A stretch of 25,572 bases of DNA from a virus (taxonomy: Duplodnaviria; Heunggongvirae; Uroviricota; Caudoviricetes). Position numbers and translations under genes: made by a program. The notes beneath the pieces were generated by a model. That model was not told the DNA's origin, searched no databases, and saw nothing but the letters and a program-made list of their open reading frames with translations. Location: the IMG/VR virus record IMGVR_UViG_2910903598_000005, positions 133,058 through 158,629 of that record; one strand, given 5' to 3'. Shown piece by piece: positions 11,200-15,131 of the stretch. The stretch's first letter is position 1; every line of letters starts with the position of its first letter.

Positions 11200-11529
11200 A
11201 TGACAAAAGAAGCATTAGATGATATAAGAGAAGTTATTGGTACACTAAGCGTTTGCGTGAGCTATAAAAGCATTAATAACATCACATCAATTCCAACTTA
11301 TGATTTATTACATCAAGTCAATATTTTAAAAAAAATTGTGCAGAAAAATATCGATCATGTAGTTGATGGTAGTCGATGCGTAGTTGTGGAAGAATCAAAT
11401 TCTGAAAAGTTTAAAAATTGCGTAGACAGTTACTTAAATAAAGGTTACAAAATTTCAGCATCCTCATGTAACAGCAAAACTTGGAAAGCAATTCTTGTAA
11501 AAGAAGATAAAGAACAGGAAAGTGAGTGA
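11200..11529 (+). CDS. Hypothetical protein
   Basis: AAAGGAG SD, 109 aa. Confidence 0.65.
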   Translation: MTKEALDDIREVIGTLSVCVSYKSINNITSIPTYDLLHQVNILKKIVQKNIDHVVDGSRCVVVEESNSEKFKNCVDSYLNKGYKISASSCNSKTWKAILVKEDKEQESE

Positions 11530-11537
11530 ATTGAATA

Positions 11538-11930
11538 ATGAGTAATATTCCATTAGTGTGTGACCATTGCGGTAAGGTATTTTTCGATTATCACGGTAGC
11601 AATTGGTGTGATTGTGGAGCTAAATGGTGTAGCGAAACATGTGCAGAATTAGATGGATATGAAAAAGAGAATTTTGGATCTAGCTGTAATTACTGTCGTG
11701 GTGATGATTTTGAAGACAGTGAATTGCTTGAATTTGTAGTTTCGGCACTTGGTGTTAGTAGAGAAGATCTTGTCGCTTTTTACAAAGAGTCTAAGGATCA
11801 ACTTAAAAAAGGGAATATTTGTAAATTTAACGGACGCATTAGTTTTAGTTCTTATACTCAAACAGGAGATACGGTTATTGCTGGCATCACGTTAAGACAT
11901 GCAACAAAGAAAAGAGATATTTATGAATAA
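11538..11930 (+). CDS. Cys-rich (putative Zn-binding) hypothetical protein
   Basis: CDHC...CDC...CSETC...CNYC. Confidence 0.65.
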
Positions 11931-12240
11931 CAGAGATTTACCAAAGAAAGATGATATTTACAAACACTTCAAAGGACATTTTTATAAAGTGATTGACCTT
12001 GCGACTCATACAGAAACAAATGAGAAACTGGTAATTTATCAGGCAATGTATGGAGATTTTAACATTTATGCCAGACCAGTAGAAATGTTTCTGAGTGAAG
12101 TTGATCACGAGAAATACCCTGATGTAGAACAGAAATACAGATTTAAGAGAGTAGGTGACAAGCCATGCAGAATCATTAGACCAGACGATATGGTAGTTGA
12201 CACCGAAGAACTTGGCATTCTAACATGCCATTATAAATAA
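11923..12240 (+). CDS. DUF1653 domain protein
   Basis: YKHFKG..YKV...[17 protein letters not shown]....YARP.EMF.SEVD..KYP...QKYRF. Confidence 0.85.
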
Positions 12241-12460
12241 TAATGTAACATTTCTAGTTACATTTCTGATGACTATTCGAGGAGAAATATCTATAGATTA
12301 GACATGTCTTATTTCTTCCATATGATGACTTTAAAATTTTGTTTTTATCTACGTTTCAATTTCTGTAGGTAAAACAATACAAAAACAAATACATAAGAAA
12401 GGTTTTATCAAGTAATCCTAGGTAAAACGCAGTGCGCTGCCTTGTAAATACAAGGTTCAA

Positions 12461-14005
12461 ATGACAGAAAATAAAAACAAAACTTCAAGAAATAAAACAT
12501 GGAAATTAGTAAATTTTTGCGAGTTTGATAAATTTGCTATCAAATCTTATTGTACAGTACATAACGTAGATGAATCGCTAAATCTTGGTGATATTACAAA
12601 AGTGGATGAAACAAAACTCAAACCATTTAATATGATTTGTGGAGGATCACCGTGCCAGGACTTTAGTATTGCAGGGAAAGGAAAAGGTTCGGTTTGGACT
12701 TGCAAACACTGTGGACATACTTATAACCCATTAACAGTCCATTGGTCTGAACGTGATGCGTGTCCAGAATGTGGCTCAAAAGATATTGAAAAGACAAGAT
12801 CCTCTTTATTGGTTGAATACTTAAGAGTTATTCGTGCCAATAAGCCAAACTTTGGTATTTATGAAAATGTAAAAAATATTGTAGGTAAAAAATTTAAAGA
12901 TACAACATTTAAATTATTTACACAGGAACTTGAAGAATATGGATATAACGTATATTGGCAAGTGCTTAACGCAAAACATTATGGTATTCCACAAAATAGA
13001 GAAAGAGTGTATCTAATCTTTATTAAGAATGAATTAGATAATGGAAAGTTTAAATATCCAGAACCATTTGATAATGGTGTTCGATTAAAAGATATTTTAG
13101 ATGACGAAGTGGATGAAAAATTCTATATCTCCAAAGATAAAGTGCAAAGATTTTTAACAAATCTTAATAATAAAGATGCTTTATTATATGATGCATGTCA
13201 GGTAAAAAGAGAAGGAAAATCAAGAGAATATAATAATTTTTGTCCTACGTTAACGTCCAGAGATTATAAAGATCCACGTCTTGTTAATGACAACATTGTA
13301 AAACAAATTGGCTCAATTTCAAAATGTGAAGGTAATTGGAATAACCCTCAAGTTGGGAGAATTTACAGCACAGATGGATGTAGCCCAACATTAAATACTT
13401 GTGGTGGCGGTAGCCATGAACCAAAGATTGTGCAGCTAGGAAATGTTAATCCATCTGGCAATGGTATGAATGGAAATGTATATGACAATGACGGGATTAG
13501 TCCAACGGTCACGACAAATAAAGGCGAAGGGTTAAAAGTAGCAATTAAACAGGCAACTAAGAAAGGCTATACGGAGTGTGAAGTTGGTGGCGTTGCAGAT
13601 CTTTCATATCCAAACTCCAAATCCAGAAGAGGCAGAGTTCAAGAAGATGGCAAAATTTGTCCGACTTTGACTGCAACCGAGACAGGAGTGTGCAGAATTG
13701 AATCAGATATTAGAATCCGAAAATTAACACCAAAAGAATGTTGGAGATTGATGGGATTTGATGATAAATCATTCAAGGCTGCTGAACAGGTAAATAGCAA
13801 CAGTCAGTTATATAAACAGGCAGGGAATTCAATTGTTGTAGATGTTTTATATTACATATTTGTTGAATTATACAAAGCAATGCCATATCTATTTGACAAT
13901 CTTAAGTTAAGCAGTTTCTTTTCTGGCATTGGAGCATTTGAGGTGGCATTAGATCGATTATATCAGGGAATTAATGAAGGAAATTTTATCAAAGGAGAAG
14001 AGTAG
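12461..14005 (+). CDS. DNA (cytosine-5)-methyltransferase, circularly permuted, multi-TRD
   Basis: Motif order II (CEFD, aa 20-23), III (GDI), IV (GGSPCQ, aa 61-66), VI (ENV), VIII (PQNRERVY), variable region, IX (RKLTPKECWRLMGF), X (KQAGNS), then I (FFSGIG, aa 486-491). Confidence 0.93.
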   Translation: MTENKNKTSRNKTWKLVNFCEFDKFAIKSYCTVHNVDESLNLGDITKVDETKLKPFNMICGGSPCQDFSIAGKGKGSVWTCKHCGHTYNPLTVHWSERDACPECGSKDIEKTRSSLLVEYLRVIRANKPNFGIYENVKNIVGKKFKDTTFKLFTQELEEYGYNVYWQVLNAKHYGIPQNRERVYLIFIKNELDNGKFKYPEPFDNGVRLKDILDDEVDEKFYISKDKVQRFLTNLNNKDALLYDACQVKREGKSREYNNFCPTLTSRDYKDPRLVNDNIVKQIGSISKCEGNWNNPQVGRIYSTDGCSPTLNTCGGGSHEPKIVQLGNVNPSGNGMNGNVYDNDGISPTVTTNKGEGLKVAIKQATKKGYTECEVGGVADLSYPNSKSRRGRVQEDGKICPTLTATETGVCRIESDIRIRKLTPKECWRLMGFDDKSFKAAEQVNSNSQLYKQAGNSIVVDVLYYIFVELYKAMPYLFDNLKLSSFFSGIGAFEVALDRLYQGINEGNFIKGEE

Positions 14006-14015
14006 CTTCTTCTCC
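13981..14015 (+). other. Predicted -1 programmed ribosomal frameshift signal
   Basis: In-frame slippery heptamer A_AAT_TTT (13981-13987), 6-nt spacer, hairpin GGAGAAGA-gtagct-TCTTCTCC (13994-14015), and upstream SD-like AGGGA (13965-13969). Confidence 0.7.
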
Positions 14016-14229
14016 AGAAATTAGTTTATTTCCATGCGTTTTAAAATATCAGAGAACCGAATATGCAAAAAAAATTCGAAAGAAATATGAGGCTGGATTG
14101 ATTCAAGAACGTATGTGCAATATGAGAGAATATGCGTTTAGAACAGACGGTATATCAAATACGCTAACGACGGTTTCAAAAGATAATTACATTTGTGAAT
14201 ACGAGGAGGAATATGAGCGAAAAGAATAG
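13987..14229 (+). CDS. -1 frame extension of the methyltransferase (80 aa, TRD-like module)
   Basis: YQRRRVASSPEISLFPCVLKYQRTEYAKKIRKKYEAGLIQERMCNMREYAFRTDGISNTLTTVSKDNYICEYEEEYERKE*. The frame is open from 13978 and has no SD-linked start of its own. Confidence 0.65.
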   Translation, partial: YQRRRVASSPEISLFPCVLKYQRTEYAKKIRKKYEAGLIQERMCNMREYAFRTDGISNTLTTVSKDNYICEYEEEYERKE

Positions 14230-14515
14230 ATATTTAGACAATTTATATTCACAGTGTCAAAGTTGTGCTAATAGGTATACTTCTTTTGAGTGTGCTTTAT
14301 GCGAAGACTTTGACATGTACAAAGAGGAATATAAAGAAGACAAAGAAGTAAAAGAACCAAATACAATTACGATCATTAAATTTGACGACTGGCAATCTAT
14401 TGAAGTCAATGGGACTAAAATAGAAAACCATAAATTAGATGTTGATGATTTTACAGATGTTTTAAAGGAATTAGGGTTCAAAGTCAACGTAGTATGGGAG
14501 GATTCAGATGTTTAA
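14213..14515 (+). CDS. Hypothetical protein with N-terminal CxxC...CxxC
   Basis: GAGGAGG SD before ATG 14213. CQSC...CALC. Confidence 0.7.
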   Translation: MSEKNRYLDNLYSQCQSCANRYTSFECALCEDFDMYKEEYKEDKEVKEPNTITIIKFDDWQSIEVNGTKIENHKLDVDDFTDVLKELGFKVNVVWEDSDV

Positions 14516-14708
14516 GATACAAGAAATTGGCAGGTCTCCAACACCTAAGAAACCAATCACTGTATATGCAGTTCGTGAAGATAAAGATAGTGACAGTTGT
14601 TGTGATTTTGAGACAGTTGAATTCCTCATATACAAAGACGATAACTGGGTTTGGGTAAGCGGCTTGTGTTATGAACCATATGGATTAAATGGATCATGTG
14701 AAATATAA
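14508..14708 (+). CDS. Small hypothetical protein
   Basis: GGGAGG SD, overlaps the upstream stop. Confidence 0.7.
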   Translation: MFKIQEIGRSPTPKKPITVYAVREDKDSDSCCDFETVEFLIYKDDNWVWVSGLCYEPYGLNGSCEI

Positions 14709-14720
14709 AAGGAGAGTTAA

Positions 14721-15131
14721 TTGTTTCAGAAATTAAAAGAGAAAATTAGAATATGGTTGTTAGAAATCCTGCAACCAGATATTGATGCCTTAAAAAATGA
14801 AATTAATGAAAGTAACACTACATTAAGATTTGCCACAAACAACTGCAATGAGGCGGCTCGTCAGTGTCAGATTTCAACAAAGCAGAATGAAGAAATGAAG
14901 AAGATGTACAACGAAATTACTGACGTAGCAGTTGACGTTGGGTTTCATGATTCAGAGCGTTCGTGGGCAGTCGTATGTATTGCTGGGAGACCTGAATATG
15001 TAAAATTTATTCCTTTAAGCGGTGCAGATGCTAGAACTGTTATGAATTTTTTAAGACAATTTCAGTATTCACGGACCATTGTTGATAGTCCTCTAAGATT
15101 CAAAGATGTGCTTCAGAGATATTTTATATAG
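14721..15131 (+). CDS. Hypothetical protein with coiled-coil N-half
   Basis: AAGGAG SD and TTG start. Confidence 0.7.
   Translation: MFQKLKEKIRIWLLEILQPDIDALKNEINESNTTLRFATNNCNEAARQCQISTKQNEEMKKMYNEITDVAVDVGFHDSERSWAVVCIAGRPEYVKFIPLSGADARTVMNFLRQFQYSRTIVDSPLRFKDVLQRYFI

Follow-up and report, generated by a model that had tools for sequence, protein, structure and literature searches.

Cytosine-C5 DNA methyltransferases are a textbook case of conserved motif order. The enzymes of the Bacillus phages rho11s, H2, SPR and phi3T keep the canonical arrangement with motif I at the N-terminus, and to our knowledge none of these multispecific C5 methyltransferases has a frameshift extension. In the plant DRM enzymes the order is VI-X, then I-V.

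Natural permutation is otherwise said, in the searchable literature, to concern the variable region only. In a survey dated 2018, 20,677 REBASE entries were scanned for motif X before motif I, and the accessible part of that report gives 27 natural cases, all of them variable-region permutants (PMC5944983). This arrangement, called Type H (also class F or zeta), is that of M.BssHII, M.Alw26I, M2.Eco31I, M.Esp3I and M2.BsaI: the N-terminus lies in the variable region, IX-X come before I-VIII and both domains are left intact. A 2025 classification has only two C5 topologies, C (canonical) and F (M2.Eco31I type) (bioRxiv 10.1101/2023.12.13.571470).

Permutation has also been engineered. According to the accessible text of PMC5944983, ten active permutation types were made, amongst which cp35M.MpeI and cp33M.SssI gave full or nearly full in vivo protection of plasmid DNA after induction, cp35M.MpeI being poorly soluble. 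Judging from the residue numbers given there, both constructs appear to be broken between motifs I and II. The same text raises the speculation that SAM binding may be weaker when the chain is broken close to the SAM site, and asks why the near-SAM breaks that performed best in the laboratory (Type B, between II and III) are missing from nature. It also cites, for M.HaeIII, the permutation-by-duplication experiments of Peisajovich, Rockah and Tawfik (2006), in which duplication, fusion and truncation led to active permutants, often with redundant extra peptides. As related there, the active N-termini obtained by this directed evolution fell between II and IV or in the variable region, and not between I and II.

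The window analysed here, a 25,572-nucleotide (25.5-kb) stretch of phage DNA, holds a + strand ORF (12461..14005) with an ATG start that encodes a 514-aa protein of this family. The catalytic motifs PCQ (aa 64-66), ENV (aa 135-137) and QNRER (aa 178-182, QxRxR) are invariant among homologues; the first-pass annotation had judged the catalytic motifs intact, and they are. The FxGxG motif I, the acidic motif II and motif X are likewise found in the protein. It is a C5 methyltransferase in each sequence and fold feature except linear order: the motifs do not run from I through X, and motif I (aa 481-497) lies C-terminal to motif X (GNS, aa 455-457) (Table 1).

Table 1. Positions in the window of the features of the permuted methyltransferase gene and its 3' region.
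Feature	Position	Strand	Basis or remark
Permuted C5 DNA methyltransferase ORF	12461..14005	+	Order II-III-IV-(Zn ribbon)-VI-VIII-TRDs-IX-X-I
Strand beta2 and motif II (aa 14-24, acidic E21), first structured element	12500..12532	+	AF2 strand E14-20; P0266 alignment from residue 22
Motif IV with catalytic Cys65 (PCQ)	12641..12667	+	HhaI alignment; invariant in homologue alignment; six-frame scan
Four-cysteine zinc-ribbon insert (aa 78-106) between motifs IV and VI	12692..12778	+	
Motif VI, ENV (aa 135-137)	12863..12871	+	Invariant in alignments A1 and A4
Motif VIII, QxRxR (aa 178-182)	12992..13006	+	Invariant in alignments A1 and A4
Variable region with four tandem TRD-like modules	13166..13708	+	Module-sized indels in A1; low pLDDT
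Motif IX (aa 418-433)	13712..13759	+	HhaI and homologue alignments
Motif X helix (aa 449-463, GNS 455-457)	13805..13849	+	HhaI and homologue alignments; AF2
Conserved X-to-I linker (aa 464-480), old C-terminus to old N-terminus	13850..13900	+	46 cluster representatives; dN/dS 0.046
Relocated motif I: beta1 and FxGxG loop (aa 481-497), helix alphaA (aa 492-505)	13901..13975	+	
In-phase slippery heptamer A_AAT_TTT	13981..13987	+	Last base of the G507 codon plus the N508 and F509 codons
Stem-loop, 6 nt 3' of the heptamer, 0-frame TAG in the loop	13994..14015	+	Covariation
-1 frame extension, 80 codons plus stop, linker and fifth TRD-like module	13987..14229	+	

Three sets of alignments define this order. 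The ORF matches Pfam PF00145 with an E value of 5e-60, only from about profile position 20 on. Its alignment with M.HhaI pairs query aa 20-76 with HhaI 39-92 (motifs II-IV), aa 107-228 with HhaI 91-213, and aa 418-470 with HhaI 270-318 (motifs IX-X). Compared by BLASTP with the canonical relative P0266, window aa 11-470 align with P0266 22-482, and window aa 481-500 with P0266 2-21 at 70% identity (E 2e-5). At the sequence level, this two-piece alignment is the signature of a circular permutation, with the break in the alphaA-beta2 loop. The first-pass annotation had described a chain that starts at motif II and places motif I after motif X; the Pfam, M.HhaI and P0266 alignments and the structural model described below all start there, and a six-frame scan of the window, together with the match to P0266 residues 2-21, puts the only motif I, like the only motif IV, within this ORF.

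A motif I upstream of the ORF had been excluded by the same annotation on account of a stop codon, and we find this to be correct. An in-frame TAG (12419..12421, + strand) stands 42 nt, or 14 codons, 5' of the start and closes the frame, which precludes an in-frame motif I upstream; when motif I segments were compared with 11900-12520 by permissive tblastn, only noise was returned (at most 15 bits). Stops precede the N-terminus in the upstream translations of all of the about 85 related loci. In the loci L002-L085 the methyltransferase ORF mostly starts at a non-ATG codon, and database proteins begin at a Leu codon read as Met; in a few of them a stop lies immediately before the motif II strand.

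Several local features complete the description of the protein. The insert between motifs IV and VI gives below-cut-off Pfam matches to Zn_ribbon_8 and a HypA-like family, its cysteines are invariant in homologue alignment A1, and it is missing from P0266, where the alignment has a gap. One module of the variable region aligns weakly with HhaI TRD residues 237-258, and the relocated motif I unit is invariant in alignment A1.

The protein falls outside the known natural permuted class. Like the Type H enzymes it is a natural permutant with the same fold, in which motif X leads on to motif I. Type H enzymes begin in the variable region, however, whereas the window enzyme begins 13 residues before beta2 (motif II) and has its IX-X pair (aa 418-463) C-terminal to the TRDs; it is broken in the loop connecting alphaA and beta2, within that half of the large domain which binds SAM. 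In the first-pass annotation the M.BssHII/M.Alw26I permutants were said to carry IX-X at the N-terminus; they are indeed broken in the variable region, the sole natural type amongst the 27 REBASE cases in the accessible part of PMC5944983, and a break between I and II was called a different topology. The latter agrees with its absence from that part of the survey and from classes C and F of bioRxiv 10.1101/2023.12.13.571470. No description of a natural II..X-I order was found in the searchable full-text literature.

The closest counterparts are the laboratory constructs cp35M.MpeI and cp33M.SssI, which, as far as the accessible text of PMC5944983 describes them, share with the window enzyme a new N-terminus before the II-III site and a motif I that follows motif X. 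Unlike it, they are engineered, CG-specific, single-TRD enzymes; the window enzyme is natural, has several TRDs and a Zn-ribbon insert, and joins X to I by its own 17-residue linker. With the Bacillus phage enzymes of rho11s, H2, SPR and phi3T it has in common that it is phage-encoded and carries tandem TRDs. Identity to these multispecific enzymes is about 36% over window aa 14-470, and the match covers only these residues, so that nothing at their C-terminus corresponds to the C-terminal motif I of the window enzyme.

Structure prediction of the C-terminal strand had been proposed as a check. AlphaFold2, run with a 71-row alignment, gives a pTM of 0.77, with pLDDT above 90 in the catalytic core and low values in the variable region. 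A C-terminal strand (E481-486) and helix (H492-505) are modelled at pLDDT 95-97 (aa 470-510). The model superposes on M.HhaI (2uz4, 1fjx) with Z 30 and an rmsd of 2.0-2.1 over 291-293 residues; since model residues 12-476 correspond to HhaI 31-324, the chain starts where beta2 of HhaI starts. The structure aligners depend on sequence order; this superposition covers residues 12-476, and the position of the last strand in the sheet, probably between beta2 and beta4, is deduced from the confidence scores, from homology to the canonical N-terminal unit and from the junction in DRM. The solved plant DRM enzyme (NtDRM, 4onj) aligns continuously, if weakly (E 7e-4), over the IX-X-I junction at query aa 419-504. 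DRM is likewise a natural X-to-I junction within a normal catalytic domain fold and, unlike the window enzyme, is eukaryotic. A phmmer search of PDB with the 47-aa C-terminal piece, a query too short for this purpose, returned no match.

Amongst both the sequence and the fold matches is the hypermodifying C5-carboxymethyltransferase PDB 8yf3, and DNA hypermodification is frequent in large phages. These two points speak for an enzyme with a different transferred group or a different substrate. We consider this very unlikely, as among solved structures M.HhaI is much the nearest relative (E 3e-33, Z 30), with 8yf3 well behind (E 3e-10, Z 21), and the named phage enzymes most closely related to it are the multispecific 5mC methyltransferases of Bacillus phages rho11s and H2.

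Far from being a singular case, the gene belongs to a large family found in phages and prophages. A search over 5.8 billion proteins returned at least 8000 candidates, all significant, of which the best 120 are 81-97% identical to the window protein and mostly 511-546 aa long. All 14 aligned close homologues share the C-terminal motif I segment and, wherever the N-terminus is complete, start at motif II; whole modules have been gained or lost in their variable region. In a profile-free scan of 1.84 billion cluster representatives, we inspected the best 150 at 50% identity and found motif I about 31 aa after motif X in at least 46 of them; where the N-terminus of these permuted representatives is complete, it starts at motif II, and the tail past motif I is mostly 14-30 residues long. 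The gene is present at 80 viral loci, mostly on phage contigs of about 150 kb, and permuted relatives are also found in MAGs of Bacilli, Clostridiaceae and Lachnospiraceae and in the isolate Blautia faecis DFI.3.66. Amongst GenBank phages the locus had no megablast match, and in a phage protein search the relatives were canonical with at most 45% identity, the best 30 matches listed never covering the C-terminal motif I. Public records name family members generically, for example DAQ69003.1 as 'Cytosine specific methyltransferase'.

The C-terminal unit is under strong purifying selection: for linker, motif I and alphaA, the median dN is 0.07 and the median dS 1.3, giving a dN/dS of 0.046 over 546 sequence pairs. 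As a side observation, some permuted relatives carry inteins (Hint and Intein_splicing, about 330 aa) at the catalytic motif IV (P0121, P0135, P0140, P0207, P0144 and L165:1816-4401), including the Blautia faecis DFI.3.66 member; inteins at a catalytic motif are a hint that these genes are expressed.

Next, we investigated the region that follows the motif I unit. The locus has the features of a -1 programmed frameshift site, namely an in-phase heptamer, a spacer, an RNA structure and a selected -1 ORF that is closed upstream. A_AAT_TTT is in phase in most of the about 85 loci, and its first A persists even at loci that have E or R at this residue. The stem lies at the same distance across loci despite their differing sequences and shows covariation, with 96.4% of cells paired and compensatory changes in 7 of 11 pairs, compared to 38-50% in slid controls. 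In the window, TAA and TGA stops close the -1 frame 3-4 codons 5' of the heptamer, and past the heptamer the -1 frame of most loci is open for 51-116 codons, compared to 0-22 in the +1 frame (33 in L044). The hairpin at 13994-14015 was also considered as a terminator and rejected, as it lacks a T-run and a terminator scan finds none.

Across loci, the -1 extension consists of a conserved linker followed by one of at least seven different TRD-like modules. The module of the window is 57-64% identical to in-frame internal TRD modules of P0140, P0136 and P0207, and motif I is naturally fused in frame to TRD-like modules in several lineages, L044 being one. The extension is itself selected, with a dN/dS of 0.04-0.2 in four module groups and 0.24-0.47 in a fifth, while control frames are mostly at 1 or above. 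Based on these sequence patterns, -1 frameshifting at the heptamer probably yields an isoform of about 589 aa with one more recognition module, and the 514-aa chain is probably not the sole product. AlphaFold2 models the extension of the in-frame fusion L044 at pLDDT below 40, with its internal TRDs also poor and no confident docking.

The next gene starts at ATG 14213, and its AGGAGG site is inside the last codons of the -1 extension (window 14195-14229). As the extension overlaps this start, the supposed 190-nt gap after the methyltransferase would be fully coding. A subclade with GEF in place of GNF (L052 and L058 versus L069 and P0274-P0276) is without the A_AAT_TTT heptamer; some of its contigs have the TRD-like extension in the -1 frame, others in frame, and the two kinds differ at a C run, which could reflect slippage, phase variation or sequencing error. 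Deletion variants (L011-L013, L015, L019, L020 and L076; L029 and L040) are without stem-loop and extension, and in L029 and L040 the region just past alphaA is joined to the last residues of the extension.

Based on these data, we favour a working multispecific phage C5 methyltransferase that is naturally permuted and has a putative frameshift isoform, and we give this reading, with the catalytic activity predicted from sequence and model, a probability of about 0.8. The chain would run from beta2 and motif II through the catalytic motifs, the tandem TRDs and IX-X to the 17-residue linker and on to beta1, the FxGxG SAM loop and alphaA. This last beta-alpha unit would take the central place in the Rossmann-like sheet, its strand flanked by beta2 and beta4, and so rebuild an M.HhaI-like SAM pocket that is completed by the last 35 residues. 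The enzyme would methylate the phage's own DNA at several targets and thereby allow escape from host restriction. Multispecificity is suggested by the four TRD-like modules, the module-sized indels and the similarity to the rho11s and H2 enzymes, with the targets predicted only from the modules. In a minor product of about 589 aa, alphaA would be followed by a fifth recognition module.

A competing view of the same locus is that of an inactive relic, left by a decayed tandem pair of methyltransferases in which the first copy has no motif I and the useless motif I fragment of the second has become fused to it. The TRD-like sequence out of frame past the stop would fit such a history, and so would several relatives that are split or frameshifted in the variable region and possibly decaying, a counterpoint to the working enzyme. 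Nonetheless the C-terminal unit has the low dN/dS of 0.046 with synonymous change saturated, the order is maintained over at least 46 clusters at 50% identity, the out-of-frame part is under purifying selection behind a conserved slippery site and a covarying stem, and the motif I unit at aa 470-510 is modelled at high confidence. We therefore regard a relic as improbable, at about the same level as the transfer of another group.

Still less likely is that motif I is supplied in trans by another polypeptide, the C-terminal copy being vestigial or regulatory. Natural two-chain C5 methyltransferases are cited in the accessible part of PMC5944983, which also reports complementation between the split fragments [1-61] and [62-395] of M.MpeI, and split relatives exist within the family of the window enzyme. 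The six frames of the window hold no second motif I, however, and conservation of the C-terminal unit is strong. Within five genomes of this phage group with a completeness of 91-100%, the permuted gene is the sole PF00145 gene, with its match starting at profile position 20-23, although a fragment of about 20 aa would escape the profile. Misplacement of the motif I segment by assembly, which the first-pass annotation had named as a possible error, has a negligible chance, and nothing was found in its favour: more than 80 independent contigs of varied sample origin have the same junction with a conserved in-frame linker, as do MAGs and the genome of an isolate, and together with the dN/dS this argues strongly against both misassembly and recent pseudogenisation.

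With the working permuted methyltransferase as the preferred reading, the family of the window enzyme, abundant in gut phages, represents a selected natural enzyme with a near-SAM break, between motifs I and II. For specialists the surprise would be that nature uses such a break at large scale, engineering having already shown that it is tolerated. The family raises the questions of what the break costs in SAM affinity, of how a protein folds when its central strand is supplied last, and of how far permutation by duplication extends in nature. It also matters for annotation, as order-dependent profiles and classifiers read the family proteins as N-terminally truncated, and ready-made split or permuted scaffolds for methylation tools could come from it. 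If the coupled frameshift extension is true, it would be a new phage route to broader anti-restriction methylation. A further reading, which we hold somewhat less likely than not, is that the free C-terminus left behind the SAM unit by the relocation of beta1-alphaA serves to dock exchangeable recognition cassettes, to which -1 frameshifting gives access. A single gene would in that case provide two methyltransferases with different target sets, and the modules would function autonomously in an internal, a C-terminal or a free-standing position.

The most likely route to the permuted order is a tandem duplication followed by in-frame fusion and by truncation of the two ends. By analogy, the permutation-by-duplication model cited in the accessible text of PMC5944983 fits, since the presumed origin and the extra C-terminal module of the window enzyme would match what is described there for the M.HaeIII permutants. 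The X-to-I linker is common to permuted proteins from different parts of the core tree. In this quick tree, permuted proteins are scattered among canonical ones, and its well-supported branches require three changes or more; the intermixing points to several origins or recombination, and a single origin is not supported by the tree. A permuted intron-exon arrangement that would restore canonical order was considered and rejected, as an Rfam search of 11500-15000 with E up to 1 found nothing; Rfam likewise found no intron in six split relatives.

Relatives with other layouts were also found. For example, the 362-aa singleton P0131, which is 68% identical to the window core and rests on a single 4-kb ENA contig, has IX-X-linker-I-II..VIII in one frame; it could represent an intermediate of a tandem fusion or else a Type H member of the family, and amongst the viral contigs no identical locus was found. 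In a sister group (L090:4750-5504, also L086-L098, L137, L159 and L166) the permuted gene is split after motif VIII, and between the two parts small ATG-initiated ORFs, lying in different frames and holding one TRD-like module each, take the place of an intact variable region. From their sequence, these ORFs may represent TRD modules that act as autonomous units; if the modules are autonomous, one that is tethered past alphaA looks less odd. At L159:5318-5788, an ORF with motifs I, IV and a GNS string, the N-terminal part of another C5 methyltransferase that has the canonical order, sits between the two parts of the split permuted gene.
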